IMG/VR virus record: IMGVR_UViG_3300028840_002702 | Span: 18,745-82,744 of that record | Reading direction: 5' to 3' (one strand) | From: a virus | DNA: 64,000 bases | Shown: piece by piece, positions 41,216 through 63,542 of the stretch | How positions within the stretch are numbered: position 1 is the first letter of the stretch | Layout: every line of letters starts with the position of its first letter | Made by a program: the position numbers and the translations under genes | The notes under the pieces: generated by a model | Told to the model about the DNA's origin: nothing | What the model saw: the letters and a program-made list of their open reading frames with translations, nothing else | Databases searched by the model: none

Positions 41216-41348
41216 TCAACAAACGGGTTATAACCTCAAGAACCCTTCCCATCCCAGAAACCCTCTATTGGCATTTTTCTACGAGCAGGTTATAACCAGT
41301 TGTACCGCGCTTATTAACCTCTGAAGTATATGGCTTTTTGTTACGAGC

Positions 41349-41805
41349 CAGTTGTTCTAAACAACTTTGGAAGTAAGTAATATACCCGTTGTTACGAGCT
41401 CTAATTAGATTAAAGTAATATACCAGTTGTTCTAAACAACTTTGGAAGTAAGTAATATACCCGTTGCTACGAGCTCTAATTAGATTAAAGTAATACACCT
41501 GTTGTTCTAAACATATACATTCTACGAGGTTGTGTACGAGTTGTTACGAGCTTGAATACATTCAAGTTATTCGCACGTTGTTCTAAACAACTTTGGAAGT
41601 AAGTAATATACCCGTTGCTACGAGCTCTAATTAGATTAAAGTAATACACCTGTTGTTTCAAGCTCTAATTAGATTAAAGTAATATACCAGTTGTTCCTAA
41701 CTATTTTGGGAGTAAGTAATACACCTGTTGTTCCTAACTATTTTGGGAGTAAGTAATATACCCGTTGTTTCAAGCTCTAATTAGATTAATGTAATACACC
41801 CGTTG
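41349..41805. repeat. 37-38 bp period array: 17-bp core AAGTAATAYACCHGTTG alternating with a few types of 20-21 bp linker
   Basis: Cores start at 41375, 41413, 41450, 41488, (41527 and 41564 degenerate), 41601, 41639, 41677, 41714, 41751, 41789. Confidence 0.92.
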
Positions 41806-41894
41806 CTTGGTACTTAAAAACCTTTAAAGTATTTGACTATTAGTAGGGAAACTAAGAATCAAAGCTATTAGCAAAATACTACATCCCAGCGTTG

Positions 41895-41975
41895 TTACGA
41901 GCCTTTTGCTACGAGCCTTTGTATACGAGCCTTTTGTAACCGGCTTTTAGATACGAGCTCTTTTGAACGAGACTT
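41895..41975 (+). repeat. 14-bp period ACGAG repeat, 6 units
   Basis: ACGAG at 41897, 41911, 41925, (ACCGG 41939), 41953, 41967. Confidence 0.9.
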
Positions 41976-42023
41976 AAAGCGAAAAAAAGTTTTAAAAAAG
42001 TAGTACTTTTTAATATTTATGTA

Positions 42024-42051
42024 TTTACTTATATCAGTTTTGAATTATATT
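42024..42051 (+). promoter_or_regulatory. Early promoter TTTACT-N16-TATATT
   Basis: The same consensus recurs more than 10 times downstream. Confidence 0.8.
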
Positions 42052-42149
42052 ATATATAGGTGGAGGGTAATATATAATGGATATATTAACCCTGCTGCCG
42101 CCCTTAATTAAAACGGGCATTGCGCCCAACACCAAAAAGGAGATCTACC

Positions 42150-42581
42150 ATGATCACCAAAAACGCCGCCACTCTGGCAATCCTGACCGAAGCCCTCAAC
42201 TCCCTGGCAGTCCGTGCGAAGAAGAACAAACTCCAAGACGGTGACACTAAGTTGCTCGAATCCATCTGGCGTTGCTCCTTCACATCCCACACCAAATACG
42301 ACCGCGAAGCGGTTGGCGAGTTCGCAAAAATCATCAACTACGGCGGAACACCTCCTACCAAGCCGGAAAACGATGATCAGGAACAATACGACTACGTCGT
42401 ATCCAACGCCCATAAGTGGATCGCAAAATGGGATATCTGCCCTAAGATAACCGCTAAGCTCGAAGAAGAAGCTGCCAAGAAGAAAGCTGAGGAGCAAGCC
42501 GCGAAGGAAGCTGAGAAAGCGGCTAAGGAAGCCGAAGCCGCCGCTCAGAAGGACGAATCCTCGGAAGAGAAATCCGCCTAA
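42150..42581 (+). CDS. GC-rich early protein with EAK-rich C-terminal tail; paralog of 60430..60927
   Basis: IWRCSFTSHT..NYGG..HKWI.KW shared with the paralog; AAGGAG RBS. Confidence 0.85.
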   Translation: MITKNAATLAILTEALNSLAVRAKKNKLQDGDTKLLESIWRCSFTSHTKYDREAVGEFAKIINYGGTPPTKPENDDQEQYDYVVSNAHKWIAKWDICPKITAKLEEEAAKKKAEEQAAKEAEKAAKEAEAAAQKDESSEEKSA

Positions 42582-42595
42582 CGGATAACCACCCT

Positions 42596-42625
42596 CCCCG
42601 GACCTCCATGGTCCGGGGACCTTTT
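42596..42625 (+). terminator. GC-rich hairpin, terminator-like
   Basis: CCCCGGACC-TCCAT-GGTCCGGGG then CTTTT. Confidence 0.65.
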
Positions 42626-42777
42626 GAGTCGCATTAATTGTCCAGAGCAAATAGTTGTACAGAGAAATTCTCGCGAGCTCGCCGCAATTAGTGGATTCAA
42701 GAGGTCCTCGGATACCTTGAAATCCGCAACTTAACCAAACAACGAGCTCCTTTCAACGAGCTCAAAGGAACGAAGAA

Positions 42778-43017
42778 ATGAGCATGATCATGGCAATGGT
42801 CCCTCACAAGACAACATCTGCCGGGGTACCAATCATCCCTCGTCAGCATCTCTCAACTGAAACTCGCTTTAACGCCCGTGAACGTGGTGGTGCGGTTCTT
42901 ATCACTGGGGAGAAGATCTCCTATAAGAAAGGTGTTGGTTACCTTTATACTCACTCCTACTCCCTCCGTGCAAAATTGGACACATTCCTCCACTGGTGGG
43001 ATGGCAAAGTACTCTAA
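42778..43017 (+). CDS. Hypothetical early protein
   Basis: AAGGA RBS; 79 aa. Confidence 0.6.
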   Translation: MSMIMAMVPHKTTSAGVPIIPRQHLSTETRFNARERGGAVLITGEKISYKKGVGYLYTHSYSLRAKLDTFLHWWDGKVL

Positions 43018-43052
43018 CGAGCCTTAACGAACGAGCATAAAGGAACGAGATA

Positions 43053-43781
43053 ATGTCTCACACTTTTCTTAAAACAAATTATGCCGATCATGGCATATGT
43101 CTAGGCGTTCCCTACTCTGATGGGAGCGGTTATACCACACCGCAAGTGGTAGAATACAACTTGGCGCGCCGAATGTTCTATAACTGGCGGGTAGCAGTAT
43201 ATCGCAACAGTGATAGTCAGATGCAAGTTTTGATCAATCCTACCGATCAAGAAGAAGCATCTGGATGGTTTAATGGTTCAGAAGAAGTCGAAGGACGAAT
43301 CATCGAATATGTTGCAATAGACTGTGGATCATTTTTTGATATGGATGATGGAACATGTCTTCGAATGTCACATCCAATGGAAGAATTGATTGAGTGGTCA
43401 TGCATCCTCAACGTATTCAAAGCTAAATTCTGCCCAGACATTGAATTGGCACCTAGTGCAGGATTCATTGGAGCCAAACGGAATGCGAGAGATTACAAGG
43501 TTCGATTAATAGAAGCAATCTCCTCGGCAGACTTTGAAGGGAAGGATGAGATGATCAGTAACGAGCCCTTTCCAACGACCACTTTTGATCATCAACTTGA
43601 TCAAAATGATCGCGATAAGATCATTACTAAGATCAATGAGATCTTAAAAGATGGTGTTAAAGTTGGTTGTGATTCAACGATCGTTGGCAATACTCGACAA
43701 ATCTGGAAAGCTCTTGGAATTGATCAACATCAAGAAAACCGAGTTGTTAACCTACTGAAGCGTGTAATTGATAACATCTAA
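43053..43781 (+). CDS. Hypothetical early protein
   Basis: 242 aa; AAGGA RBS. Confidence 0.7.
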   Translation: MSHTFLKTNYADHGICLGVPYSDGSGYTTPQVVEYNLARRMFYNWRVAVYRNSDSQMQVLINPTDQEEASGWFNGSEEVEGRIIEYVAIDCGSFFDMDDGTCLRMSHPMEELIEWSCILNVFKAKFCPDIELAPSAGFIGAKRNARDYKVRLIEAISSADFEGKDEMISNEPFPTTTFDHQLDQNDRDKIITKINEILKDGVKVGCDSTIVGNTRQIWKALGIDQHQENRVVNLLKRVIDNI

Positions 43782-43792
43782 ATACGAAGATC

Positions 43793-44059
43793 ATGTCAAA
43801 CAAAGAAATTATAACATGGAATACTGGGCGCCAGTATACGAGGGAAGGTCAACGAATTGGAGCAACTATCCATGAAGGAATAGTTCAATTCTCTGATTAT
43901 GACCGAATGGTATCGGGGACCTTCCCACATATACCTGGTATTGATCTGAAAGAACAAGTCATGGATCACTACGACAATAACAAATATAGTTGTAGTATGC
44001 CATATGAACACCGACAGGAGTTGGAAGAGTATATCAAGGAACATGCACCAACCCTCTAA
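43793..44059 (+). CDS. Hypothetical early protein
   Basis: WNTGRQYT.EGQRI motif. Confidence 0.7.
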   Translation: MSNKEIITWNTGRQYTREGQRIGATIHEGIVQFSDYDRMVSGTFPHIPGIDLKEQVMDHYDNNKYSCSMPYEHRQELEEYIKEHAPTL

Positions 44060-44076
44060 CAAGAAAGGAACGAGCT

Positions 44077-44256
44077 ATGATCAACGAGCTAGAACAACAA
44101 GAACGACCACCTCAAGTAGTAAAAGAAGAACTAATCAATCTTCTCCAGGAATTCTCAGATCATCTCTTCAGTGGAAACTATGATGGTGATTGGGATGAAG
44201 ATGATATCCAAGATATCAAGAATGCAACAGGAATCCTCCAAGACGAAATTGAATAG
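44077..44256 (+). CDS. Small acidic protein (59 aa, not in the ORF track)
   Basis: MINELEQQERPPQ...DGDWDEDDIQD...; AAGGA RBS. Confidence 0.65.
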   Translation: MINELEQQERPPQVVKEELINLLQEFSDHLFSGNYDGDWDEDDIQDIKNATGILQDEIE

Positions 44257-44264
44257 GACGAGCT

Positions 44265-44564
44265 ATGACGAACGAGAAATGTAAATGTAAATGGGGCCAG
44301 TATTATTCTGAGAATGAACATGGTCAATCCGTATGGGTCTGTGACGAATGTGGTGCAGTTCGTGATAAACCAAAAGAACAAGAATTCACCTGCGCAGAAT
44401 GTAATAAGGAGATTCATGGCAGAATCAATCTAGTGGATCCAGGATCCTATGGATTTGTTAGATTCAAAAATGAACCACATGAAGAGATCTGTGATGAATG
44501 CTGGGATCGCAGAGTCAATAACCAAGGAGATCGTTACTACCTAAATAGCGAGGCAGCCTACTAA
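44265..44564 (+). CDS. Cys-rich Zn-finger protein
   Basis: CKC, CDEC, CAEC, CDEC. Confidence 0.7.
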   Translation: MTNEKCKCKWGQYYSENEHGQSVWVCDECGAVRDKPKEQEFTCAECNKEIHGRINLVDPGSYGFVRFKNEPHEEICDECWDRRVNNQGDRYYLNSEAAY

Positions 44565-44753
44565 ATGAAATATGAGAAGATTAAAATCGTTATAGGTGCA
44601 TTGTGTCTAATAGCATCTATAGGAATAATTACATATATCAGTACGAGACCAATCAACGAGCTTGGCTTGTACGAGTTTGTAATCAATTCATTCTTTCTGA
44701 TACTATGTGCAATCATAGTAGATAAATGGTTGTTTATAAGGATGCGTGACTAG
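44565..44753 (+). CDS. Small two-TM membrane protein
   Basis: Two hydrophobic segments; GAGG RBS. Confidence 0.6.
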   Translation: MKYEKIKIVIGALCLIASIGIITYISTRPINELGLYEFVINSFFLILCAIIVDKWLFIRMRD

Positions 44754-44845
44754 TGTCACTCGGTGTCCCTCGTTAGCTATCACGCGAGCGAGAACACAAT
44801 TCCCAACAACCCAAACAAACCCTCCCTAACGGGTAGACCTATGTC

Positions 44846-44873
44846 TATATAATCACGTTTCGTTAAAAGTAAA
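44846..44873 (-). promoter_or_regulatory. Leftward promoter of the TTTACT-N16 class
   Basis: Minus strand reads TTTACT-N16-TATATA, the same variant as at 20865. Confidence 0.5.
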
Positions 44874-44903
44874 CTAAGAAAAGACTGGAGTTGAAAAAAA
44901 GTT

Positions 44904-45071
44904 ATGTTCAATAAGAATGCTCTAATTATAATAGGAGTAGTACTGTTCATTTATGGTGTTATCTTTCCCCCACCTAAATCAATTGAATTCATGCGTCAAC
45001 CAATGATTACTGCATCTATTATCCTATTAGTATTAGGTAGTACATATACAAACTTGGATAAAAAAGAATGA
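44904..45071 (+). CDS. Small membrane protein (55 aa)
   Basis: MFNKNALIIIGVVLFIYGVIFP...; GGAG upstream; a 34-aa hydrophobic ORF (45068-45172) is coupled to it. Confidence 0.5.
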   Translation: MFNKNALIIIGVVLFIYGVIFPPPKSIEFMRQPMITASIILLVLGSTYTNLDKKE

Positions 45072-45354
45072 AGAACTCAACAAAAGAACTTTTAATATTC
45101 ATTGCATTATTCCTTAGTATATTATTCATGATGACTGCACCTCTATGGATGTATTGGATTCTTGGAAAGTGATCGCAAATGATCATTTTCAGTAGAAAAG
45201 TTGGAATAACCCTAGGGAAGATTTACCTCGTTGTATAAAAATGATCACTTTTTGATCATATGATCACTATTTTTGATCATATGAGAGCTCATATGTATAC
45301 TCCAGATGCTGCTCGTGAACTCTTGTGTTTGAGAATGGGCTGGGATGATCAAAG

Positions 45355-45441
45355 AGATGGGGTGAGATGGCAGTAGATGGCAGTAGATGGCAGTAGATGG
45401 CAGTAGATGGGGTGAGATGGCAGTAGATGGCAGTAGATGGG
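45355..45441. repeat. 10-bp tandem repeat AGATGG(CAGT/GGTG), 9 copies
   Basis: AGATGG every 10 bp from 45355 to 45435. Confidence 0.95.
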
Positions 45442-45770
45442 AATAAACGCCCATAGGTTTGCATATAAAACAACTTGCATGAACATACCGTGATGCATGA
45501 GAGTCTTTGATGGCCGTGTCTGGGCATCTTACCTACCCACATAGTAGTATGTATCCCTATAAGAAGTGTTGTATTAGCATATGATTACCTATTGTATATC
45601 CTATTATTATTATGTGTATGTATACTAACGAGAGTTGTACTACGAGCTTTTTTATTTCTTTTATTTCTTGCCTGATTCTATATCTTTTGAGACGAGTTTG
45701 AGGAAGTACGATTGTTGTGGGGAAAAATTGCAATTTTTCAATAAATAGTTCTATACAAATGGAGTATAAA

Positions 45771-46250
45771 ATGAAATTTAAGAAATTAATTGAGGCGTTT
45801 AACTATACTACTTCTATAGAGAAAGCTAAAGAAAAGTGGTATAAAGATTTTAATGCAATCAAGTTTAGTGACTTTGAAGTGAGGTGGGATCCGGAAAAAG
45901 ACAATATTGAATCTGTGATGAAAGCTTTATATGATGCTGATCAGTATGATGAAGATTGGGATGACCATGGACCTCCATTCTGGGAAATTGACATGCCATT
46001 ACCTTGGAATGATAATATTCTTTTTACTATTAATCCGTATGAGAATGGTAACATTTCAGTTAGTGTATCTGGGTTTAAAGGACGTGATGGTGTAAGAAGT
46101 GGTGTAGCGGTTAGTGATATTTTCTTAGGTACTGGGCGATTTATTAAAGGATCTTTTACAAACAAGGATCTAGAAGAGATGATGGATGAAGTGTTGGAAA
46201 AGATTATAGATAGAGATCTCCTACACCCTGCATCAAAAGATGACAATTAA
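45771..46250 (+). CDS. EAF-leader family, putative internal head protein
   Basis: MKFKKLIEAFNY; AATAAATA at 45740-45747; GGAG RBS. Confidence 0.7.
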   Translation: MKFKKLIEAFNYTTSIEKAKEKWYKDFNAIKFSDFEVRWDPEKDNIESVMKALYDADQYDEDWDDHGPPFWEIDMPLPWNDNILFTINPYENGNISVSVSGFKGRDGVRSGVAVSDIFLGTGRFIKGSFTNKDLEEMMDEVLEKIIDRDLLHPASKDDN

Positions 46251-46301
46251 TATGTGATATATCCAGAACTTAAATAACGAGATGTCAACTACGAGATTTT
46301 T

Positions 46302-46327
46302 GGGAGCTTTTGGCTCCCATTATTTTT
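46302..46327 (+). terminator. Rho-independent terminator
   Basis: GGGAGC-TTTTG-GCTCCC followed by a T-rich tail. Confidence 0.65.
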
Positions 46328-46350
46328 GTTTAAAAAAGTTTAAGGATAAT

Positions 46351-46378
46351 TTTACTTTGTTAATTTACATGTTATATT
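46351..46378 (+). promoter_or_regulatory. Early promoter
   Basis: TTTACT-N16-TATATT with extended -10 TG. Confidence 0.8.
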
Positions 46379-46420
46379 ATAATAACAACTTATAATGGAC
46401 TTAATAAAAGGAACATTGTT

Positions 46421-46693
46421 ATGGGCAGGTATATTGAAGGCCCCGCAAAAGGTAAAGTTAATCACATCGTTGACATGGGCGCAACTGTTATCAGTGAAGA
46501 TGGTGCACGACAAATCATGGAATCAGGTGACGAAGACAATGGTGTAATTATTGTTGTTGATAATGGACCATTTGAAGCCGCTGCGTGGGCATTTGATCTT
46601 CGTGAGTTCAAAGTATTCACTAACCCTCGTGATCACCGTCCAAAAACTTTCTTAACCATGAACCGTGAAACTATTATGAAGGTAGCTAAATAA
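46421..46693 (+). CDS. Hypothetical early protein
   Basis: VVDNGPFEAA motif; AAGGA RBS. Confidence 0.75.
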   Translation: MGRYIEGPAKGKVNHIVDMGATVISEDGARQIMESGDEDNGVIIVVDNGPFEAAAWAFDLREFKVFTNPRDHRPKTFLTMNRETIMKVAK

Positions 46694-47058
46694 TGATTAC
46701 ACGGACTAAACTATCCGAAACAGCAATTGATGAGATTGCATACTGTATTGAACGTGGTAGTAAACTTACAGCAATTAAAACATTGCGTCAACACATCAAA
46801 ATTAGTCTTTTAGATGCAAAAGAACTAATTGAAGCGTATGATTGTCCAGCTAATTATAGTAGCAATAATGGAAGTCTTACTGTAATCCGTAGTGCAGAAG
46901 ATGAAAGACTTGCATATAAATCTGCAAACCGTTTCCGTGCTGATATGGCACGGTATGAATTTGTTACACATACCTTTGAAGAAATAATGGATGACGTAAT
47001 ACGTGAATTTGGTCACGTTCGAGCACTTCAATACATCGCAAATCAAATGGAGGTTTAG
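46693..47058 (+). CDS. Protein with a ribosomal L7/L12 C-terminal-like domain
   Basis: KLTAIKTLRQHIKISLLDAKELIE versus L12 KIxxIKxxRxxxGLGLKEAKDLVE. Confidence 0.6.
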   Translation: MITRTKLSETAIDEIAYCIERGSKLTAIKTLRQHIKISLLDAKELIEAYDCPANYSSNNGSLTVIRSAEDERLAYKSANRFRADMARYEFVTHTFEEIMDDVIREFGHVRALQYIANQMEV

Positions 47059-48177
47059 ATGCCGCGACGTACACAATCGTTACTTGGTGAACTGGTTGAA
47101 GGTTCATGGGAAGAAATCCAGAATTATAACCATGCTGAATTCTTTGATTTTGCCGCCGGAACAATCGATGATTTGACCGAGGAAGAAGCATGGGATTACT
47201 GGGAAGGTGTTGGACTTACACCTCATGCAGATAATGAACATGATCTTGACTGGGAAGAAACTAAAGATCTTGTAGGAGTTTGGGAGTATGAGTAAAGAAC
47301 TTATCGGGTATCTTGCCTTTTCTAAATCAGGCATTAAGTTCATCAAACCATCTAAACAACGTAAACCGAAAACACAATACAACTTCGGTGGACGAGATGC
47401 TACTATCGAGAAATGTGGTAGTCAATGGGAAGGTGTGTTTGATGATGATCATGGTCACACTTTCATTGCTGATCGGAAACGAGATGTAATTAATGATATG
47501 AAATGTCATGTTAATGTTTCGTAAAATTTGAAGTTGGAGAAAATCAATGAATATTTTACAAAAGCAACTATTGGATAAAAAGATTGTTGGTATTCATGAG
47601 ATCGAAGGATCATGTGTAGATCAATATCATTTGATATTGAATGATGGTACTAAAATTGTTATCAGTAACGAGCATCATACTGGTTCTTTTGAAGTTCATG
47701 AACCTGGAATGATTTGCGGGGGTACTGTTAAAATTCATCGCGATGAATTTGTAAAAGGTCGTACTGAAGATTTCTTTGATCCTTGTTGTATGGTATGTCA
47801 TGAAGAAATTGAAACAGCAATTCTTTATGAAGCTGGACATGAATCTACTTACGTATGTTGTCCAATGTGTTATGAACAAACGAAGTAAGTATTAAAGAAG
47901 ATACTAAAGAGGAAATATAATGTCAGGAAAAATTGAATGGTCAAAGTCTGGATCTTATTCAACAATTCATCCTGAGAAAATCGGGAAAGTCACTGCACCA
48001 AATGGTAAACAATATCGTGCCAAACCAACACTTAATTGTTGTGACTGTGCTTTCTCTTCAATGTTTTCACCATGTAATGATCGTCAAACATTACCATGTG
48101 AGACGGGTGATTTGATTACTATTGATGGCAAAACATATCGTATGGAACGAGATACTGCATGGGAAAAGGTTACTTAA
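47059..48177 (+). CDS. Four small early ORFs (47059-47295, 47288-47524, 47547-47888, 47920-48177)
   Basis: Closely packed ORFs with RBSs; acidic or Cys-rich; no function recognised. Confidence 0.6.
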
Positions 48178-48211
48178 GAAATCTTTTGTTCATTATTTTT
48201 ATAAAAATGTT

Positions 48212-48239
48212 TTTACTTTTATTAAAATGATGTTATATT
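48212..48239 (+). promoter_or_regulatory. Early promoter
   Basis: TTTACT-N16-TATATT. Confidence 0.8.
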
Positions 48240-48315
48240 ATATTAAACCGCAAGGAATATAATAAAGGATATTAAGTGAAAGACCAAATCAAATTTTTAA
48301 ACCTCTTTAAACCAT

Positions 48316-48627
48316 GTGGAGAATATTGTGGCTAAGATTACATTAGACTTTGCTGTTGTAACTGAAGAAGAAACGATGGCTTTGTATCAAGAGTTCATTG
48401 AATATCTCTTGGATTTCGGATGTAATAATCCTGATGTACGTGCAATGACGTACGAAGAATTAAAAGAATATCATGCTACAAGAAATCCTAATTCAAACGA
48501 CTTTACACTTACTGGTCATATTGACGACATCAAACTATATCTTAAAGAGAAATACTGTGTTGGTATGACTGAAGAAGATATTAAAGAAACAATAAATTCA
48601 ATTGAAGATAGCGGAGATGTAAAATGA
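48316..48627 (+). CDS. Acidic hypothetical protein
   Basis: 103 aa; start uncertain. Confidence 0.55.
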   Translation: MENIVAKITLDFAVVTEEETMALYQEFIEYLLDFGCNNPDVRAMTYEELKEYHATRNPNSNDFTLTGHIDDIKLYLKEKYCVGMTEEDIKETINSIEDSGDVK

Positions 48628-55474: not shown

Positions 55475-56157
55475 ATGCCAACTAAAGAAACCACAAAACA
55501 CAAGAAAGATCAATACGAAGATTTTAATGATCCACGTATTGATACTAGTCGCCCATTGTATTTCCCGACTCCTGCCCACGAGGACATGATGCGAGACTTA
55601 CGTGACAAACAATTAATCGCCGGAATTGAAGGAGCAGACGACTAATGAATGCTGAAGACCTTGATAAATGTCATCTCACACATAATTTGATTGCACTCGA
55701 ATACCGAAGTTTTGATCAAAATTATCGTGGTGATGATCCAATTGAAGATACTAAACCACTTCAAGCACTTGAAGTAGAAGAAGCAGAAGAGTTTATAGCC
55801 GCAATTATGGGTGACGAAAATAATTCAATTGAAGATCAAATTCGTCATTTAGCAGTTCGTATTGAATACCTTCTACCAGGCGTCAAAGATCTTCCTGAAG
55901 AACAATACGAAGAAGTGATGGAAGCTCTTCGGATTATTAACGTAACAATCTGAGATCGAACAATGAATGATCCAGTTTTTGGGAATAGAAGTGTTGAGCA
56001 AATAATTAGTGAATTCAAAGATTATCTTGATAAAATGTCTGATGAAGAATTCAACGATATTGTAAAGTTTGCTGAAGCTCTCCCACCAGTCCAAATCATA
56101 TGTCCGTTTGATCACGAGAATGATATTAACGAGAGTTCATTAACGAGTAAAAAATAG
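55475..56157 (+). CDS. Three small ORFs (55475-55645, 55645-55953, 55963-56157)
   Basis: Closely packed, acidic, no function recognised. Confidence 0.55.
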
Positions 56158-56179
56158 TTAAAAAAGTTTTAAAGATTAT

Positions 56180-56207: not shown

Positions 56208-56246
56208 ATAATATGATTTGGAATACTTAACCAAAAAGGAGTACCA

Positions 56247-56798
56247 ATGAAAAACGCAACCGCAATGCAACTGGCTCAACTCTGTGATGCCAATACCTTT
56301 GAAGCCGCAATCGAATTTGTTGATAAGTTCAACATCACATTCGGAACAAGCATTTCACCAACTGAAGTTGTTCTCGAAATGAACAAGAACGGATACAAGA
56401 TTCCGGTGAACTTTGAATTCGATCACCTCGAAACTTTCTCTAAGGTTCTTCCATGCGGAGTGAAGGGAAAGAAAATGACTGTACTCGTTACAACAAAATC
56501 TGAAATTACTGTCGATCTTTCTAAAGATATTGACCTTCAAATTTTGGCAGAAGTAACTGCTAAGGGTACATCCGAGACCATTAAAAGCATGGTCAAACCA
56601 ACCAAGAAGAAACGAAAGAAATCAATTACCCGGAAAATTTGGACAGCTGAAGATGATGAACTCGTAATGAGTGATGAAAAAATCTCATTGCTGGCCGAAC
56701 TTCTTGGTCGGTCCCAACAAGCGGTTTATAATCGCCGCTATAACCTCCGCAAACAAGCTGCTAACGCAGCCGGTAATGGCCCAGTATTTTTGTGTTAA
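56247..56798 (+). CDS. Putative DNA-binding protein with a C-terminal Myb/SANT-like HTH
   Basis: WTAEDDELV...LAELLGRSQQAVYNRRYNL; AAGGAG RBS. Confidence 0.7.
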   Translation: MKNATAMQLAQLCDANTFEAAIEFVDKFNITFGTSISPTEVVLEMNKNGYKIPVNFEFDHLETFSKVLPCGVKGKKMTVLVTTKSEITVDLSKDIDLQILAEVTAKGTSETIKSMVKPTKKKRKKSITRKIWTAEDDELVMSDEKISLLAELLGRSQQAVYNRRYNLRKQAANAAGNGPVFLC

Positions 56799-56816
56799 AA
56801 AAATTATAAAGATGAT

Positions 56817-56844
56817 TTTACTTTGAATAATTCTATGTTATATT
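56817..56844 (+). promoter_or_regulatory. Early promoter
   Basis: TTTACT-N16-TATATT. Confidence 0.82.
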
Positions 56845-56882
56845 ATTATATCAAAGGAATAACTTAACTTAAGGAATGTTAG

Positions 56883-58428
56883 ATGCCTGATAAAATGACT
56901 GCAGAAGATCTCATTGCGCATGTTGGAACGGACATTGATCCGCTATTAAAAGCGGGATTATTTCTTGACACAACAGACTTAATGGCACGCAATGGAACAC
57001 TTAGATTCTGGGATCCAAAAACAGATGAGCTTTACACTCTTAACGAAGCAACTGGTTATGTTCGTCGCTTCACTACAACAAATTCTTACAAGAAACATTT
57101 ACCGTACCCACTTAATCCCCGTCCGAGTAAGACGGTTACCCACGGACAATTCTTTCAAACGAAGGAACGAGTACTAGGGGATTACATTAGACTTCATGAT
57201 ATTAAAGAACAAGTCAAACGAGTTTTACAAACATTAAGGAGGAGACATGCCGCGCTCAATAAAAACACCTGACGAAATAGCACAAAACGTGCTTAATCAA
57301 CTAACATGTGCATGTGGCGATATTGCTGCTTGTACTGTAGATTACGATGGTAATATTTTAAGACAATTACCTGGACTTGGAGACTCTCGCTGGACACGTC
57401 GAGCACGCCAAGCAAAGGCTGATGGAGTTATTGATCTTCATGGTTGGCTGGCGGATGAAATCTATAACGACTCTGATACAATTCGTGATTATTTAGGAGA
57501 CTGGATCCACGATAATTGTAATAATGACGTTGAACTCTATAACAAAGTTTGTATTGAGCTTATTCAAATTGGACACTCAGCAGTAAAATCTGCTGCACAA
57601 ACACTTATAAGGGATTAAGTTAATGAAAGCGCATGATAAACGTGATATCTTTAAAACAGTTGTTGCACGTCTCAACGATTGTAAAACCGAACTTAAAGAT
57701 ATCACGGAAGATCCAGACGATTCTCAATGTAAGGATGTATCATCCTTTAAAAACATGTTTAATGACATGATTGACGACGCTACTTGGTATATGAATCATT
57801 ATGAGAAAATTGCCGATGCTTGTTGCAAATCATGTGAAAAAGAATTAGATCAAAGATGGATTCATTGTCCATTTTGTGGAACCAAAAGAGCTGCCTAATG
57901 TTTATCGCAACAACCTTTATTATACCCGCAATTGTTTTAGCACTACTAGTTGTAGGAATCTTTAAAAGATCAAGACAATTACTTGAAATTAAAGAATTTG
58001 AAAAAGAATGTAGTTCATTACATTTCCGAGCGAAAAATATAATGAAAGTTGTTAACAATGATATTGAAATTATTAAGAATGAAAAACGACGAGTATTAGC
58101 TGCATGGTCAATGGTAGATCTTTATCACGATTCAGTTAAAATTGGTGATGAAGAAACTATCAAGAAGTGTGGCACTTGGTTTAAAAATTCTAAGAAAGAA
58201 AATCTCTTTGACGAGGAATAGATGATGCGAAATCTTTTTAAAGTATTATGGAAAGAGTTTAAAACTCTTGTTGCAATTGCAGGATTATTCTCAGTATTAA
58301 CTCTTGCTGTTTGGGGTACAGCATATGTTACAGCAAAGCATTGCCGAATACAAGCTGAGAAAGAGAAGCGTATACTTGCCAAAGTATTCTACGAATATCG
58401 GTTGAAAAATCCACCGAAGCAAAAGTAA
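56883..58428 (+). CDS. Operon of five small ORFs (56883-57272, 57247-57618, 57623-57898 Zn ribbon, 57898-58221 TM, 58222-58428 TM)
   Basis: Coupled ORFs; CxxC..CPFCG in the third; hydrophobic segments in the last two. Confidence 0.6.
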
Positions 58429-58446
58429 AATAATTTTAAAATAGTT

Positions 58447-58474
58447 TTTACTTTTTAACTTTTCATGTTATATT
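58447..58474 (+). promoter_or_regulatory. Early promoter
   Basis: TTTACT-N16-TATATT. Confidence 0.8.
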
Positions 58475-58510
58475 ATAATATCAAAGAAAATAAGAATAAG
58501 GATTATAAAG

Positions 58511-60313
58511 ATGTTCTGTGAAACATGTAAAATGAATGACCGCTTAGTTGAAGGCGATTTCTTTTGTGAAGAATGTAACGAAGCTAAATGCGAAGAGTGT
58601 ATGTTAAACTGTGAAGCATGTGGTTTCGATCTTTGTGATTCTTGTAATGAAGATTTGGATGTATGTCCACAATGTAAAGAACCTTTAAAATGAAAAATAT
58701 TGTTTGTTATCTCGTATTGCTCACCATCGCAATTGTAGGTCTTGTTAGATGTGAACAAGTTGAATCAATACTTGGAAGCTACGCATTTTTAATGAGTGCA
58801 ATTGCGATAGTGATTCTTATTTTTATGGAGATAATAACAATTGCAACTGGAGAAAATAAATGAGAATGCTTGTAACATTTGGTCAAGAACATGCTCATAG
58901 AATCAATAACCAAACTCTTGACAAAGATTCAGTGGCAGTAATTAATTGTGATAATTATGATCACGGTCGCAAACTTGCATTTGAATTTTTTGATAACAAA
59001 TTTCACAATACATATGAAGAAGGAAAAGAACCGTCTAACTTAATGTTCTGGTTCCCACGAGGAAAAATCGAGGTTAATTAATGCCTAAAGTACAAATTGT
59101 TAAATATGATATCACGGTTACTGAACCACCATTTACTTTAATTGTTGTTGGTGAGTTTGAATATGATGAACCAATAGATGATCATCTCGGAGAAAAACGC
59201 TCAATAATCTTGGCTCGTGAATGTAGAAAACAAGGTTTTGATATGCAGTTTATTACATCAAGTGATGCTGAAGGATATGATCATGATGTTTTTGTTCATC
59301 TAACACAAGAAGAATGGCCGCATTGTAGTGATGGTAAATTTAATTGTTTTTGTTCTCGGGATGAAAAACTCTATAATCGATATAACGAATTTAACTATAT
59401 TGATATTGAGAGTACCAATTTTCCTCCGTGTCCCATTTGTGATAATAATGCAGTTTATCCATCTGAATTTTTCTTTAATAAAGAAGAACCAAATCTTACT
59501 TGTATGAAATGTAATTTAAATCTACATTTAGCTGATTGGAAAATATTAGCGGAGCGAGTAGACAGAACAAAGGTTGCAACTATCTAATGGATTATTACGA
59601 ACAAGAACGCATTAAACAACAAAAATTTGATCGGCAATTTAAAGCTGCTCAACAACGTTACGATAACCAGCTTCCACCTGATTATGAAGATGGCCCTGAA
59701 TTTGAAGACTATCCCAGCGAATATCGTGGGTGGAAATGTCTTGAATGTCATGAAATTTATTTGGCATCAGAATATGATGATGAACCAACGAAATGTCAAT
59801 GTTGTTTTGAATGTGCAGATGAATATCCGGATCCTCATCCAGGATTTGAAGAGTACATTGATTATAATGGATTTAATCAGTATCAAAATGATGCTGAAGC
59901 CGAAGCTGCATTAGATGCAATGGATTGGTAACATGAAAAAACGAAATAGATATACTCATCGAAATATTTTTGGCAAGGTTATGGAAACTTTCTATAACTT
60001 TCATGGAACTGTTGAAGAAGCAGTAGAAATTCTTCGTCCACATCACTGGATCTTAAATGAAATTTATAAGAACAGTCTTGAAGAAGAAACCAAGCTTAGT
60101 AAAGAATATGGGTTTGATTCTAAACCTGATACTAGGAGTGGCGAAGAAACATATGGATATAAATCAGACGAAGATATCTTATGTAACCTCTTTTATATCT
60201 CAGATCGATGGGGTTGTGCATTTCGTGTCAGATGGATACTTGATTTAATTGATCGTTATGATGAAAACAAGAATAATTCTAAAGACAAAAAAAGTTTTAA
60301 AAAAATAATATGA
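58511..60313 (+). CDS. Operon of six small ORFs (58511-58693 Cys-rich, 58690-58863 TM, 58860-59081, 59081-59587, 59587-59931, 59933-60313)
   Basis: Translationally coupled starts and stops; many CxxC motifs. Confidence 0.6.
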
Positions 60314-60317
60314 AGTT

Positions 60318-60345
60318 TATACTTTTTAATGTTTGATGTTATATT
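60318..60345 (+). promoter_or_regulatory. Early promoter
   Basis: TATACT-N16-TATATT followed by a long 5' hairpin. Confidence 0.78.
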
Positions 60346-60429
60346 ATATTATCAAAGGAATAATAGTAAATCCATTATTATTCCCTTTAATTAAAACTGG
60401 GCCTCTGCCCACAACATGGAGTAACCACC

Positions 60430-60927
60430 ATGATCAGCAAAGCTGAAGCAATCCAAGCCATCCTGGCTGAAGCCGTCGCCTCCCTTGAGGCTCGTAAAGA
60501 CAACCTGACATCCGAAGACATCGCCCTCCTCGGCGCTATCTGGCGTTGCAGCTACACCTCCCACACCAACTTCAACAGTGAAGTGGTTGAATCCTTTGGC
60601 CGCATCACCAACTACGGTGGCGACCTTCCGATGATCGACGGTCTGACCGAAGAAGAAACCGAAGAGTACACCGCGATCGTTAAGAACGGTCACAAGTGGA
60701 TCGGTAAGTGGGGCGTAATGCCGGAAATTACCGAACGCCTCGAAGCTGAAGAAGCCGAACGGAAGCGTCTGGAAGAAGAAGCCAAGGCGGAAGCCAAGGT
60801 GAAAGCCGAGCAGGAAAAGAAGGAAAAGGAAGAAGCTGAAGCGAAAGCTGCAGCCGAAGCCGAAGCCGAAGAACAATCCGAGCCGGCCCAGACCACGAAG
60901 AAAGGCAGCAAAAAGAAGTCTGCCTAA
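60430..60927 (+). CDS. GC-rich early protein with EAK-rich tail; paralog of 42150..42581
   Basis: IWRCSYTSHT..NYGG..HKWIGKW; ends KSA like its paralog. Confidence 0.85.
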   Translation: MISKAEAIQAILAEAVASLEARKDNLTSEDIALLGAIWRCSYTSHTNFNSEVVESFGRITNYGGDLPMIDGLTEEETEEYTAIVKNGHKWIGKWGVMPEITERLEAEEAERKRLEEEAKAEAKVKAEQEKKEKEEAEAKAAAEAEAEEQSEPAQTTKKGSKKKSA

Positions 60928-60950
60928 CTTCCACACTACCCTGGAATAAT

Positions 60951-60978
60951 TACGGGGTCCAATTGGACCCCGTACTTT
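60951..60978 (+). terminator. GC-rich hairpin, terminator-like
   Basis: TACGGGGTCC-AATT-GGACCCCGTA then CTTT. Confidence 0.7.
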
Positions 60979-60983
60979 AATGG

Positions 60984-61131
60984 TATCTTAATAAGATATT
61001 ACTAGTTTTAAACTAGCGTCGCATCATCTTGACTAGTAATATCTTATTAAGATATCATAAGAAGTAGTAGGCTGGTCGAAGCTCTCCAATAGGATGACAA
61101 TCGCTGGTAAGACTCACTTATGATATCTTAA
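60984..61131 (+). other. Two overlapping long inverted repeats (structured intergenic RNA)
   Basis: 23-bp perfect IR 60984-61006 / 61032-61054; 15-bp perfect IR 61047-61061 / 61117-61131. Confidence 0.75.
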
Positions 61132-61159
61132 TTAAATCTTAATCAAAAGGAAAGCTACA

Positions 61160-63542
61160 ATGGCTACATGCTTTAGAGTCTATTCAGATGGTAGCAAGAA
61201 AAAATTCTCACCGCAATCATTAGCCGACCAAAATGACTGGATTGAATTTAATAAGATCCATCGTTTTGGTTGTGCTTTAGTTGTTGGTGATAGATATATT
61301 GATGGCACTGGATATCCAGCTGCTAGACAACATGCGGAACACTTTGTTGAAGAAATGAAAGGATCAGGGTGGTTAACATGACAAATTTAAACTGGCCTTC
61401 GACCAACGAACTATTTAACAATTGGTATAAAGGTGATGCTTTTATTGAACCTGCTCAACCTGCTCAACCTGATTGGATAAAGAAGTTTAATGACTTTTGT
61501 AATCTATTACCTGAAGCAGATGATTCAGTTCCATATAGTAAAGAATTATACAACCGTATTGAGAAGATTGTTCCCGAACAAATGATTGATTGGATGATTG
61601 GTGATGGACCAGGATTTTATGATTGGGCTTTACGTCATCAAACTGAAGTTGAGAAATATGTAGACTTAGTAATCGATACTAAGTTAGAATATGACAAATC
61701 TCAAGAAGATTTAAAGAAAGAAGATGTTGAAAGAATGAATAACAACGCTTGGCTACTTACGCAAGAACTTGAAGGATTGGAAGAACATCAATCTACATTA
61801 CGATCTGTCAATGAACAACTTCAAAGTTCTCATTTACAAATAGCAATTCGAGATATTGATGAAGCAATTGATAGTATCCGAGAAGTAATTGATGAATGTG
61901 AGGATGCAGATGAAGAAGCGAATTAAGAAAAAGATGGTCCGTGATGGAATATGTCCTTGTTGTAAAAGTGGTAATGGAATTGCGCATTTTGATTCTACCA
62001 CTTACAAACGGTTTATGAATGTTTGTACTGATTGTTTTACTTGTTCTATCATTAATGAAAATGGACATATTGAATATGAAGTAAATGAAGAATTTAAAAA
62101 GACATGGCAAGAAGCTGAAAAACAACCCATGTCTCCTCAGATGAAAAAGTTCCTAGAAAAATTGGAGGATAATAATGGAAGTAGCAACGACAATAACGAA
62201 GATCTTTAAACGTCGAGTTGAAGATATAGACTATGTATTGGATATTCCTCATTGCATGACAAAGGGTGAGTCTATTGGTTGCCCTTGTAATCACGAAACA
62301 GTTTGTAATGGTGATGGTGCAGCACGAGAGTTTAACCACGAAGATATGTATGAAATCAAAACAACAGGCTTTCCAAGCTGGTGTCCATTAGAGAATAAAA
62401 ATGATTGATAATACGCTTAAATTAATTGAACAGGGTAAACTACGAGAGAAAGAACTCTGTAAAGAACAAAAGCTCTGTGATATTTGTAAGCGTCATTTGG
62501 CGATTAAGCCACGTATTTGGTTTGGTATTTCATTAGATATTTGTACTGAGTGTATCAAGAGTCACAATATTATTCTTAACCAAAAGGAAAAGTGATATGG
62601 ACAACAAAACACATGCAAGAATGCGGCATTTTTATCTGTACGCAAAACATCATTACAAAGCTTCTGATGATGTAATGGCTGATCTTAAAGTTATCTATGA
62701 TGACTTTGTTGGTCACGATTGTGGTGAAGAACGAGACATCATGCACTGGCTTTTGAAACTCGGTTATCTACATATCAAATCTGAACGTGATTTTTCTGAA
62801 TTTATGAATGACATTCATCCAATGAATGCTTTCCGAGTTGGATGTAGTTCACCTGGATTTATGCAACCATCTGAAGATCCATATTGGACACGAGTAGCCC
62901 GAGCTATTCTTTCAAGACTTTTCAATACGACTGTTAATGAAATTGATTTTGATCTCGGTGAACCAGATGAAAGTCTTTTACCACTACGATTTAAACAAGA
63001 ATTCATTGATGAAATGAATGAAATCGGATTTGAATATGATGGTGATAGTACGTTCACACATAACTATCAATACGAATATACAATTGCTGGTCCAACTACC
63101 GCTTTTGTATGTGTCGATTGGATTAATCGTACTGCCAAAGCATATGATGATACTGAAGAAGATAACGAAGAAGTTTGGCACTATGCAAACCTTTACGATG
63201 CTATCAGGAATATTAAAGAAATAGCAGAATCAGGAACATTCGATATCAGACAATCATAATAACGAAGATAGTCTAGACTCTAGCACTTAAACTGACATAA
63301 ATAAAGGAACACATATTATGACAATCGGAGATGTCGTTAAACACAAAGAAACAACCAAGTATAACAATTGGATGGATCAAGTTGATAAACTTCTATCTAA
63401 GCAGTTTGGAGTTACTTCCCAACATCTAGAAGATTATATTTGGAGAAATTGTTTCGAAAGTGGATCTTCACCTGCTGAGGCTATTGATGATTTTATCTAT
63501 GATAATTATCCTGAATTGGCTGATGAAATGGGTATGAACTGA
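61160..63542 (+). CDS. Run of hypothetical early ORFs (61160-61381, 61378-61926, ~61910-62209, 62175-62408, 62401-62595, 62597-63259, 63318-63542)
   Basis: Closely packed ORFs with RBSs; no function recognised. Confidence 0.6.

Follow-up and report, generated by a model that had tools for sequence, protein, structure and literature searches.

In an uncultured marine T4-like phage of lytic type we identified a short word, ACGAG, which recurs in a 14-nt phase in 13 arrays. All arrays and all 11 exact pairs lie on the sense strand, and they most likely form a docking code for a regulatory protein. Tentatively, we favor an RNA-level operator for a cooperative protein of fixed geometry that would shut off the first early operon. 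An RNA-level operator for early genes had been named as an alternative in the original prediction and ranks first among the readings weighed here. The window, i.e. the whole stretch of 64,000 nucleotides analyzed, belongs to a record of 82,744 bp which comprises 36% of the genome and of which about 60 ORFs were scanned. A T4 gp43-type polymerase and a gp6-like baseplate wedge identify the phage as a distant T4-type myovirus, and its DNA is probably hypermodified. ORFs make up 87% of the window. The region of the arrays is transcribed rightward with the + strand as sense strand, and the first early operon extends from the promoter at 42024 to the terminator ending at 46319.

The window contains 61 copies of ACGAG on its + strand and 31 on its - strand (read as CTCGT); for the whole record the counts are 66 and 35. 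Every coordinate listed in the original prediction (41281-62342) holds on recheck, and two copies were added to that list, one at 44656 (between 44643 and 44671) and one at 56114 (15 nt before 56129). A + strand-specific phase with peaks at 14 and 28 bp had been expected. Accordingly, we counted 11 exact + strand pairs at 14 nt, 4 at 28, 2 at 42 and 2 at 56 in the window, and on its - strand none at any distance up to 60. Ranking all 1024 5-mers at 56 spacings across the 82.7-kb record placed ACGAG at spacing 14 first among 57,344 word/spacing combinations, with 11 pairs observed versus 0.053 expected (Poisson P about 2e-22). In density-matched nulls, with copy number fixed per 100-, 200-, 500- or 1000-bp bin, the mean was 0.26-0.52 pairs at 14 nt and the maximum 4. 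Neighbor distances of at most 40 nt were exactly 14 in 11 of 17 cases and 13-15 in 14 of 17. Moreover, six one-mismatch copies lie exactly 14 nt downstream of an exact ACGAG, compared with 0-3 at the other offsets tested (6 to 42), and only one lies 14 nt upstream; the degenerate partners are real as a class. Codon-preserving shuffles keep 8-10 pairs, an uninformative test because most pairs lie outside ORFs or straddle their boundaries. Conservation is limited to W-ACGAG-M while the spacers vary, and therefore the arrays are not plain tandem repeats.

Coordinates of the ACGAG arrays and associated features (positions in the window)
Feature	Coordinates	Strand	Description
Eight single ACGAG copies	41281..41624	+	41281, 41343, 41394, 41469, 41524, 41536, 41546, 41620; within or adjoining 37/38-bp core array
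A1	41897..41971	+	Six phased positions: ACGAG at 41897, 41911, 41925, 41953, 41967, degenerate AACCGG at 41938; non-coding
First early promoter	42024..42053	+	TTTACT, 16-18 nt spacer, TATATT/TATTAT
A2	42742..42774	+	ACGAG, ACGAG, ACGAA; third between SD AAAGGA and ATG 42778, 8 nt before A of ATG
A3	43017..43049	+	Three exact copies filling 35-nt junction; first overlaps stop TAA 43015-43017, third 8 nt before ATG 43053
A4	43561..43579	+	ACGAG, ACGAC at +14; inside ORF 43053-43781
Lone ACGAA	43784..43788	+	9 nt before ATG 43793; no phased partner
A5	43838..43856	+	ACGAG, ACGAA at +14; inside ORF 43793-44059
A6	44070..44088	+	First copy between SD AAAGGA and ATG 44077 (7 nt before); second in codons 3-4 of 59-aa ORF
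A7	44258..44276	+	First copy after stop TAG 44255-44257, 7 nt before ATG 44265; second in codons 3-4
A8	44643..44675	+	Three exact copies, spacings 13 and 15; inside ORF 44565-44753
A9	45628..45646	+	Two exact copies within roughly 1-kb stretch 44754-45770
A10	46277..46295	+	Two exact copies 3' of stop 46250, directly before terminator hairpin 46301-46319
A11	47392..47410	+	ACGAG, TCGAG at +14; inside ORF 47288-47524; weak alone
A12	56114..56147	+	Three exact copies, spacings 15 and 14; 3' end of ORF 55963-56157
Candidate reader (DNA level)	56247..56798	+	183 aa, basic, pI 9.0
A13	62324..62342	+	ACGAG, ACGAA at +14; inside ORF 62175-62408; weak alone

The copies had been described as densest at 41-46 kb. 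This holds for 41000-46320, to which the excess is limited (32 copies versus about 5 expected; by sub-interval 13+14+5 versus about 0.5+3.2+1.0 from base composition). Beyond it the counts are near expectation (6 versus 6.7 in 46320-56000, 12 versus 6.2 in 56000-64000) except for the triplet 56114-56143. Thirteen of the 32 copies, including the largest array A1, are located upstream of the first early promoter; the other 19 lie outside the 0.95-kb non-coding region (41.05-42.0 kb) and spread over 4.4 kb. The majority of arrays consist of two or three copies placed precisely at gene junctions, and seven of the 11 exact pairs are wholly outside ORFs, three straddle an ORF boundary and one is inside. 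The stretch 44754-45770 contains no + strand ORF of at least 60 aa. As predicted, sites also occur in coding sequence. The intragenic pairs occupy two different reading frames, 14 not being a multiple of 3, which argues that selection acts on nucleotides.

An overlap with the RBS or start of four early genes had been claimed; the overlap was confirmed and the number is five. In five genes in a row (42778, 43053, 43793, 44077 and 44265) the ATG is preceded by ACGAR at a distance of 7-9 nt. Elsewhere in the window no genuine gene start has it: of 13 regex matches, the remaining 8 lead into ORFs of at most 23 aa or fall inside a longer ORF. The junction at 42778 measures 158 nt, thus a shortage of space does not explain the register there, and the single copy before 43793 keeps it as well. 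Two pairs of junction cassettes are near-duplicates, 42755-42780/43030-43055 and 44063-44088/44251-44276 (the latter those of A6 and A7), each 81% identical over 26 nt in the A6/A7 case. The predicted position of sites shortly upstream of three early promoters was also found, with arrays 17, 18 and 42 nt before the AAAAAGTTT element: A1 ends 17 nt before AAAAAGTTTT (41984) of the first early promoter, A12 ends 18 nt before AAAAAGTTTT (56161) of promoter 56180, and A10 lies 42 nt before AAAAAGTTT (46333) of promoter 46351. In all, 10 nearly identical promoters, the first early promoter among them, are spread over 42024 to 58447. The non-coding region adjoins the AT-rich promoter region and is rich in repeats, with four tandem-repeat families (11, 12, 37/38 and 14 bp). 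Palindromes and a 12-copy core array accompany its eight single copies, of which four share the left flank GTTGYT with the first copy of A1, and A1 itself is in part a 14-bp tandem repeat (family D3). Folding of eight array regions revealed no common RNA structure, as seven did not outperform shuffled sequences (z between -1.4 and +1.0) and the single exception (z -3.5) contains the intrinsic terminator.

The RNA reading is in line with the exclusive sense-strand location of the arrays, with the 10 of 11 exact pairs outside an ORF or straddling its boundary, and with the start-codon register in five consecutive genes. The array regions are mostly unstructured like natural RegA sites, as far as these are covered in PMC3014915. 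Degenerate copies 3' of exact ones (6 versus 1) are expected if binding nucleates on the site transcribed first, and the phage is of T4 type, T4 itself shutting off early messages post-transcriptionally. Against it, no recognizable promoter was seen in the region of the 13 copies that precede the first early promoter, so the model needs upstream read-through or an unseen promoter. Nearly as likely is a double-strand DNA-binding protein that docks head to tail on sites 14 bp apart, in the manner of stoperators. At about 10.5 bp per turn each step would rotate by 120 degrees and three sites would complete four turns; arrays upstream of promoters would modulate initiation, and junction arrays would stop elongating RNA polymerase in an orientation-dependent manner and shut off the first early operon. 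Such narrow spacing is seen more often with DNA sites than with RNA, which is flexible, the palindromes beside the non-coding copies and core array are typical of dimeric DNA binders, and the nearly fixed distance of A1 and A12 from the same element resembles a DNA-level module; three of the four promoters with a AAAAAGTTTT element have an array at most 45 nt upstream. Mycobacteriophage L5-type repressors provide a precedent, to the extent described in PMC9283540. A possible reader is the protein at 56247, the early region's only protein predicted to bind DNA, encoded directly behind A12. Its N-terminal module is conserved, and at its C-terminus it has a Myb/homeodomain-like three-helix module. 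The HTH call made for it earlier is borne out by its distant relatives, which pass the Pfam Myb_DNA-binding cut-off, and by an AlphaFold model (7-sequence alignment) with a confident C-terminal three-helix module; the protein has five full-length relatives. Its link to ACGAG is circumstantial and consists of the triplet before its own promoter. The 42150/60430 paralogs, also suggested as readers, are acidic (pI 5.6 and 4.8) and poor candidates. Nevertheless, a DNA-level reading gives no reason for the ACGAR register with five start codons, to which the lone copy at 43784 belongs, 14 bp sets neighboring protomers on different helix faces, and we know of no direct-repeat operator with a 14-bp period. 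The common orientation of all 13 arrays would need an extra assumption, and the probable hypermodification of the DNA may affect this kind of reading.

It was further proposed that the sites mark a polar domain for DNA entry, packaging or partition. This is unsupported because a translocase, packaging or centromere signal would not need two- or three-copy junction sets. The 0.95-kb non-coding region itself may have a role as an origin. In a related and improbable scenario the non-coding region is an iteron-type origin or a packaging/entry site, with ACGAG as iteron and satellites downstream. The gene-free stretch with its repeat families beside AT-rich sequence would fit, and the six phased positions of A1 would suit a hexameric loader; however, most excess copies lie outside it, in small junction sets, and cumulative GC skew tracks gene orientation only, without a switch at 41-42 kb. 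T4-type phages are generally packaged by headful and have no fixed ends. Contigs of two sequencing runs span 41729-45384 without ends, although Logan contigs cannot show molecule ends. Strictly sense arrays in the leaders and between the genes of transcription units would also suit a loading or pause signal on the exposed non-template DNA strand, read during early-region transcription by an elongation factor as RfaH reads ops. We consider this very unlikely, as a single transcription bubble cannot hold two copies 14 nt apart, A1 precedes the promoter, and the ORFs scanned showed no gene of the NusG/RfaH type. Least credible is the absence of any function. The near-duplicate cassettes and the partly tandem A1 could be remnants of duplication or slippage, but pentamer and phase are kept at 13 separate places where spacers are not, intragenic pairs hold the phase across reading frames, and density-matched nulls never reached 11 pairs (0/5000 in each of four bin sizes).

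A head-to-tail protein with fixed geometry remains the simplest reader. In TRAP and HutP the geometry of the protein imposes a strict period on short RNA words. CsrA/RsmA is a dimeric RNA binder that uses a site at the SD and another close to it, and is titrated by CsrB-type multi-site non-coding RNAs; it reads GGA in hairpin loops whose distances vary. The junction arrays together with the motif-rich non-coding region parallel CsrA/CsrB, whereas the word here is ACGAG, the context unstructured and the distance fixed at 14 nt. A strict period of short words was likewise described for VIPR vrRNAs, in which 9-16 tandem YNNGG units are coated by a helical Vipr filament (PMC13142463; 10.64898/2026.04.26.720927). 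The periods of TRAP, HutP and VIPR are about 5 nt in long uninterrupted tracts, in contrast to two to six copies every 14 nt at gene junctions.

Similar sites were described in mycobacteriophages. Cluster A stoperators and operators, bound by L5 gp71-type repressors, are asymmetric, lie in promoters and short intergenic spaces and follow transcription in orientation, and inversion abolishes their function. ACGAG sites share the asymmetry, scatter, promoter/intergenic location and orientation. According to the same account, stoperators are single 13-bp sites for a two-domain monomer in temperate phages with proven DNA action (PMC9283540), whereas ACGAG forms pairs and triplets of a 5-7-nt word every 14 nt in a lytic-type T4-like phage and may act at the RNA or the DNA level. 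The Cluster K SAS/ESAS, as outlined in PMC3203893, are non-palindromic, in one orientation, typically 3-7 bp upstream of the starts of a subset of non-structural genes, and in some cases extend over the stop codon of the preceding gene; at the time of their description neither function nor reader was known. ACGAG is likewise non-palindromic, in a single orientation, just before start codons and sometimes overlapping an upstream stop. However, SAS is one 13-bp unit with the SD core AGGAG conserved across a phage cluster (PMC3203893), while ACGAG, read in one genome, is phased, multi-copy, 3' of the SD and also present before promoters and inside ORFs. Closest in phage type is the T4 RegA/RegB system, which shuts off many early messages post-transcriptionally via short unstructured sites at translation-initiation regions. 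RegA sites overlap the AUG or sit immediately 5' of it, and RegB cuts GGAG mostly in intergenic SD sequences. Unlike ACGAG, RegA sites are in this description A+U-rich without a fixed word or phased repeats, and the RegB word is GGAG (PMC3014915). In the record, 36% of the genome, homologues of RegA (PF01818) and CsrA (PF02599) were not found, nor was a recognizable RNA-binding domain among the about 60 ORFs scanned.

For the RNA-level operator we infer three things, namely that the reader recognizes RNA, that its binding is repressive, and that transcription of 41.2-42.0 kb runs in sense direction. The arrays would be cis-acting operators read on the sense transcript by a sequence-specific protein, which would bind single-stranded RNA cooperatively, each subunit covering about 14 nt in fixed register, in the form of a ring or head-to-tail oligomer. 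Arrays in 3' untranslated positions (A10, A12), in ORFs and in the non-coding region (A1 and the eight singles) may act as stability, nucleation or decoy sites. The logic would be that of T4 RegA, which blocks translation initiation on early messages, and of CsrA with its SD site and helper site. In the first early operon one copy per junction array lies between Shine-Dalgarno and AUG, so that a bound oligomer would block 30S entry and silence five consecutive genes together.

On the plus strand of the window the pentamer ACGAG recurs at a fixed spacing of 14 nt. The autocorrelation by strand that had been suggested as a check showed the expected peaks on this strand only, with 11 exact pairs at 14 nt and four at 28 nt, followed by two each at 42 and 56 nt; on the minus strand of the window no two copies lay within 60 nt of each other. 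All positions listed in the original prediction were correct, and two copies, at 44656 and 56114, had been overlooked. The word is neither equally frequent on both strands (61 plus-strand against 31 minus-strand copies) nor evenly spread along the genome. Compared with the expectation from composition, 13 copies against about 0.5 were counted at 41000-42023, 14 against about 3.2 at 42024-44800 and 5 against about 1.0 at 44800-46320, and the remainder of the window was near expectation. The excess is local.

To assess the phase, all 1024 pentamers were compared at spacings of 5-60 over the full 82,744-bp record. ACGAG at spacing 14 was the top of all combinations (11 pairs against 0.053 expected, Poisson P 2e-22), and the next-ranked combinations not overlapping the motif came from ordinary tandem repeats with units of 10 and 11 bp. 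In 5000 randomisations per bin size, in which the number of copies was fixed per bin of 100, 200, 500 or 1000 bp, a mean of 0.26-0.52 pairs arose and never more than four. Therefore, clustering alone cannot account for the 14-nt phase, and chance was rejected as its source on both grounds. Moreover, six one-mismatch partners were found at exactly +14, compared with 0-3 at other offsets and one at -14. This enrichment indicates that the degenerate pairs reported earlier are real as a class, and the arrays therefore decay in the 5'-to-3' direction. Seven of the 11 exact pairs lie wholly outside ORFs, which make up 87% of the window, while three cross an ORF boundary and one is inside. A codon-preserving shuffle, the other control proposed with the original prediction, was run and decides nothing, since just one of the 11 pairs lies wholly within an ORF. 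A protein-coding origin was rejected because the phase is 14 and the positions are mostly non-coding. When 24 array copies were aligned, only W (A/T) at position -1, ACGAG itself and M (A/C, never G) at +5 were conserved, with at most 0.4 bit in the spacer columns. The arrays are therefore phased words and not repeated units. A plain tandem repeat of the minisatellite type was likewise rejected, as the spacer is not repeated along with the word; A1 alone, partly covered by the 14-bp repeat family D3, retains part of its spacer.

The source record is linear, 82,744 bp long (the window being bases 18745-82744) and 36% complete according to CheckV; the window has a G+C content of 32.5%. Tail and baseplate genes, including a gp6-like baseplate wedge, are directed leftward in the left 15 kb of the record. 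The window encodes a T4 gp43-type DNA polymerase with about 30% identity to cyanomyophage polymerases, and also an SbcCD-like nuclease, ribonucleotide reductase, dCMP deaminase, several glycosyltransferases and three thymidylate-synthase-like ORFs. One early ORF weakly resembled T4 Frd3 in Pfam, below the threshold, and no tRNA genes were found. We read this phage as a deep-branching, uncultured marine T4-type myophage. Besides, positions 1-36431 of the window hold a probable DNA-hypermodification gene set (table). From 42 kb onward small orphan genes are densely packed, every one rightward, and are driven by ten near-identical early promoters between 42024 and 58447 (TTTACT, a spacer of 16-18 nt and TATATT or TATTAT). 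An eleventh, variant early promoter was noted near 60330, and a terminator hairpin precedes several early promoters, an arrangement which we take to recall the promoter-early stem-loop cassettes of T4-type phages. Near-identical copies of the window were present in contigs of two DNA runs from seawater and sediment metagenomes, with three substitutions and two indels in 20 kb and none within arrays; being this similar, they carry no information on array conservation. The runs listed as holding the sequence were DNA runs, with no RNA run among them.

The 13 arrays, designated A1 to A13, consist of two to six phased positions each and occupy four placements (table). All of them, and all 11 exact pairs, lie on the sense strand. 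The first early operon extends from the promoter at 42024 to a terminator at 46301-46319. At four of its genes, with ATGs at 42778, 43053, 44077 and 44265, the gap between the Shine-Dalgarno sequence (SD, AAGGA) and the ATG holds one copy of ACGAR (ACGAG or ACGAA), 7-8 nt before the A of the ATG. Phased partners follow 14 and 28 nt upstream in A2 and A3, and 14 nt downstream, in codons 3-4, in A6 and A7. A lone ACGAA without a phased partner stands at 43784, 9 nt 5' of the ATG at 43793. From the end of the motif to the ATG there are 2-4 nt at these five consecutive genes, and ACGAR at that distance was absent from every other real gene start in the window. The claim that the repeats overlap ribosome-binding sites or starts of early genes thus holds, for five genes instead of four. 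The first copy of A3 overlaps the stop codon of the upstream gene, A7 directly follows a stop codon, and the four junctions filled by arrays are 7-158 nt long, the longest being that before 42778. The predicted location upstream of three early promoters was confirmed as well. A1, with six positions, ends 17 nt before the element AAAAAGTTTT of promoter 42024, and A12, with three, 18 nt before that of promoter 56180. A10, with two positions, ends 42 nt before the AAAAAGTTTT element of promoter 46351, and a terminator hairpin intervenes. The AAAAAGTTTT element occurs on four promoters only, three of which have an array, 17-42 nt upstream of AAAAAGTTT.

Positions of the ACGAG arrays (array starts, plus strand) and of ORFs in the probable hypermodification set
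Feature	Position	Remark
Arrays at gene junctions (A2, A3, A6, A7)	42742, 43017, 44070, 44258	
Arrays upstream of promoters (A1, A10, A12)	41897, 46277, 56114	
Intra-ORF arrays (A4, A5, A8, A11, A13)	43561, 43838, 44643, 47392, 62324	two copies necessarily in different reading frames
Array A9	45628	
Thymidylate-synthase-like ORFs	33580, 34228(?), 35697	hypermodification set
dCMP deaminase	21991	hypermodification set
Glycosyltransferase-like ORFs, at least three	2480, 10058, 14465	hypermodification set
Heptose kinase/adenylyltransferase-like ORF	22846	hypermodification set
Methyltransferase-like ORF	30194	hypermodification set

G+C reaches 43%, with a C>G skew, in the segment 42024-44800, where the five target genes lie, compared with 26-39% elsewhere (2-kb windows) and G>C on the sense strand. 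The genes with ACGAR before the ATG within this island are exactly those five, and the island may have been acquired horizontally as a module, together with its own control word. Its small proteins include a basic one of 79 aa (ORF 42778-43017) and one of 99 aa with four Cys-X2-Cys pairs (ORF 44265-44564), which, like the product of the ORF at 47288, are further candidates for binding the word. We found no shared RNA fold: seven of eight folded array regions did not surpass shuffles, and a terminator is part of the eighth. A known RNA family was rejected, since the Rfam 15 covariance models gave a best E-value of 0.45 on both strands of 40500-48500 and all matches were far below the gathering score. 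Words of the type AACTTAACC or ACTTAA were also seen upstream of several early ribosome-binding sites, at 42727 and 46268 and in the leaders after promoters 53694, 54672, 56180 and 56817; they presumably resemble the 'epsilon' translational enhancer of T7 gene 10.

Left of the first early promoter, a gene-free stretch of 0.95 kb (41.05-42.0 kb) contains eight single copies of ACGAG. Four of the eight are flanked as GTTGYT-ACGAG-C, as is the first copy of A1. The same stretch carries a core of about 17 bp (AGTAATAYACCNGTTGYT) every 37 or 38 bp at 41349-41805, in about 12 copies, 10 of which match the regular expression. Between the cores stand alternating linkers, which form palindromes or hairpins of their own (GTTGTTCTAAACAAC; TCTAATTAGA); in four of them the core is immediately followed by ACGAG, and TCAAG takes its place in later copies. 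Possible readings of this core array are an iteron-type origin, a protein platform and a repeat RNA. In metagenomes the core was found at 118 loci at least, and among the matches listed all were single chance matches, none of them similar to the window by blastn. Other repeats occur nearby. Just left of the core array, at 41057-41219, an 11-bp unit AAAGACGATCA and a 12-bp unit ATCATATCATCA are each repeated four to five times in tandem, both within doubtful small ORFs. A 10-bp repeat (AGATGGCAGT / AGATGGGGTG) runs in tandem for about 10 units at 45335-45464, within 1 kb that lacks clear ORFs; it is one unit shorter in a contig of run X2.

Relatives that would inform on conservation were scarce. 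Megablast of 41200-46400 and of 25846-32773 against 50,697 phage records gave no match. The early protein encoded at 43053 was alone among 5.8 billion proteins in a word-indexed search, and neither it nor the sigma-like ORF had a locus in a protein-seeded scan of IMG/VR. In the same database four loci matched the DNA polymerase at 30-31% identity and two matched a thymidylate-synthase homologue at 62% and 50%, the closer one (G001) lying in an unrelated 49%-GC phage. The triple-ACGAG pattern occurs at 117 or more IMG/VR loci. The strict three-copy ACGAGC pattern and its backward-read control both gave 23 loci; thus there is no virome-wide excess, and a virome-wide element was rejected. Hits of the array scan were mostly whole-unit tandem repeats of 7 or 14 bp. 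One unrelated record with 65-70% G+C, IMGVR_UViG_3300037461_001295 (loci L072, L102 and L109), has five or more separate ACGAG heptad arrays with variable 2-nt spacers, on a single strand and in several cases just upstream of ATGs. Variable-spacer heptads close to ATGs in a few contigs had suggested that such arrays favour start codons. This idea was dropped: among 64 arrays over which no long open frame runs, 15 lay sense-upstream and 10 antisense-upstream of an ORF start, although spurious long frames in high-GC contigs had removed some arrays from this set.

As a reader of the word, the original prediction had proposed the 183-aa protein of ORF 56247-56798, which is encoded directly behind A12. 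The word-indexed search of 5.8 billion proteins returned no relative of it but itself. Identical copies of this protein and of that from 43053 are encoded together on a contig of 206,884 bp. An exhaustive phmmer search yielded 42 proteins at E<=0.001, including five full-length relatives with 24-34% identity in the alignment; many of the other matches carry its C-terminal domain (about 45 aa) two to six times in tandem. In two of these multi-copy proteins the summed scores, 27.0 and 29.7 bits, pass the Pfam cut-off for Myb_DNA-binding (24.4 bits), and several also match sigma-70 region 4. This Myb-like domain, single in the 56247 protein, is present in two to six tandem copies in proteins P0004-P0008 and others, and a 73-member cluster of tandem Myb-like proteins includes ones named from Nanosyncoccaceae (CPR) MAGs. 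AlphaFold performed poorly on the single sequence (pLDDT 40) and reached pLDDT 67 with a seven-sequence alignment, predicting with confidence a three-helix module at residues 6-47 and another at 134-174. Foldseek of this model against the PDB gave no hit at E<=0.001; locally it came closest to GerE/LuxR-type and homeodomain folds, with TM scores of 0.5-0.6 over 45-64 columns, and the ESM Atlas gave sub-threshold leads only. Searches with the alignment found no relative in the GTDB species genomes or in IMG/VR, and the relatives obtained lie on metagenome contigs of 2.7-47 kb, the full-length ones being P0011 (47 kb), P0009/P0044 (14-17 kb), P0003, P0023 and P0033. A public 174-aa version corresponds exactly to residues 1-174 of the ORF, so that the gene calls differ at the C-terminus. 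We regard the proposed Myb/HTH label as reasonable. No other protein of the early region is predicted to bind DNA, but the link of this one with ACGAG is circumstantial and consists of its position behind A12. A six-frame search of the record, which is 36% complete, gave no match to RegA (PF01818) at E<=1. The CsrA family (PF02599) had no match in the record either, with 64% of the genome lying outside it, and scans of about 60 ORFs revealed no repressor-like protein.

In placement and orientation the arrays follow the logic of stoperators, of the Cluster K SAS and of RegA/RegB sites, but they lack a defining feature of each. Similar to the stoperators and operators of Cluster A phages, they are asymmetric sites oriented with transcription (no pairs on the other strand) and lie at promoters and in short intergenic spaces (PMC9283540). 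The Cluster A element is a single 13-bp site for a monomeric immunity repressor, unlike W-ACGAG-M every 14 nt in a T4-type phage (PMC9283540). The Cluster K SAS likewise have one orientation and precede the start codons of some non-structural genes by a few nucleotides; they are defined by a 13-bp consensus, GGGATAGGAGCCC, that contains the SD core, whereas here ACGAG is placed after the SD AAGGA. RegA sites are unstructured, A+U-rich and include or abut the AUG (PMC3014915); the sites here are unstructured and abut the AUG, but their conserved word contains G and C and is repeated, unlike RegA sites. The word ACGAG also differs from the GGA of CsrA/CsrB. The VIPR vrRNA is described as 9-16 tandem YNNGG units of period 5 followed by a structured tail (PMC13142463); a guide array of this type was rejected because the period here is 14 and sets comprise two to six copies. 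Literature searched directly for the word and for named systems, supplements aside, yielded no account of phased ACGAG copies or of a phage junction element with a 14-nt phase; the papers listed for ACGAG and phage repeats dealt with CRISPR type III tags, primers and similar subjects. We place the arrays among the dispersed, orientation-specific regulatory words of phage early regions, with an unusually clean signal.

Five features call for explanation: the word is 5-7 nt long, its 14-nt register is rigid to within one nucleotide, all arrays are in sense orientation, gene junctions are preferred and the copies there keep register with the start codon, and other arrays keep register with the promoter-upstream element. 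The word and its rigid register point to a fixed-geometry protein oligomer with one word per subunit. The start-codon register and the promoter-element register pull toward opposite readings. We tentatively rank first an RNA-level operator, at which a translational repressor would be seated at the SD-AUG position of early genes. Sense orientation then follows without extra assumption, and binding might nucleate on the site that emerges first, which would fit the 5'-to-3' decay of the arrays. The SD-AUG register is kept where room does not force it, in the 158-nt junction before 42778, and without a partner at 43784; the unstructured sites are counted in favour as well. Post-transcriptional shut-off of early messages via RegA and RegB is described for T4-type phages (PMC3014915). 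An RNA-level operator is weakest at the 13 copies that precede the first early promoter, for which transcription from the left genes or an unrecognised promoter would be needed. These copies and the promoter register would be explained naturally by stoperator-like operator sites in DNA, for which the L5-type operators and stoperators are a precedent (PMC9283540). We consider this possible and rank it close behind, but the start-codon register must then be a side effect of short junctions, and orientation-dependent action must be assumed.

Unlikely, in our estimate, is a new post-transcriptional switch in which a ring-forming or helical RNA binder, taking one ACGAG per subunit every 14 nt, would silence the five consecutive early genes at their SD-AUG spacers and be titrated or loaded by the motif-rich non-coding region immediately upstream. 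Such a switch would combine a repressor/decoy circuit of the Csr kind with a fixed geometry as in TRAP, its parts being related to neither. A role in replication origin, packaging or DNA entry seems more improbable still, as it leaves the junction arrays unexplained and no cumulative GC skew switch was seen at 41-42 kb. The original prediction is partly supported, in its oligomeric reader and its early-gene operator but not in its domain for DNA entry, packaging or partition. The mechanism is a ranked guess, whereas the observation itself is confirmed.

Orientation-specific dispersed words at gene junctions are known in few phage groups only, and for one of them, the SAS, the reader had not been identified at the time of the 2011 description (PMC3203893). 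The present case adds a sharply defined example, in which a 5-nt word recurs with a phase of 14 nt, the statistical signal leaves no doubt and the five target genes are clear. It is set in the early region of what we take for a deep-branching marine T4-type phage, two of whose early proteins, when searched, had no word-sharing relatives. To our knowledge, a period of 14 nt matches neither the DNA helical repeat nor any known RNA-binding ring. Since it fits no such geometry, finding the reader would probably reveal an unfamiliar binding geometry.
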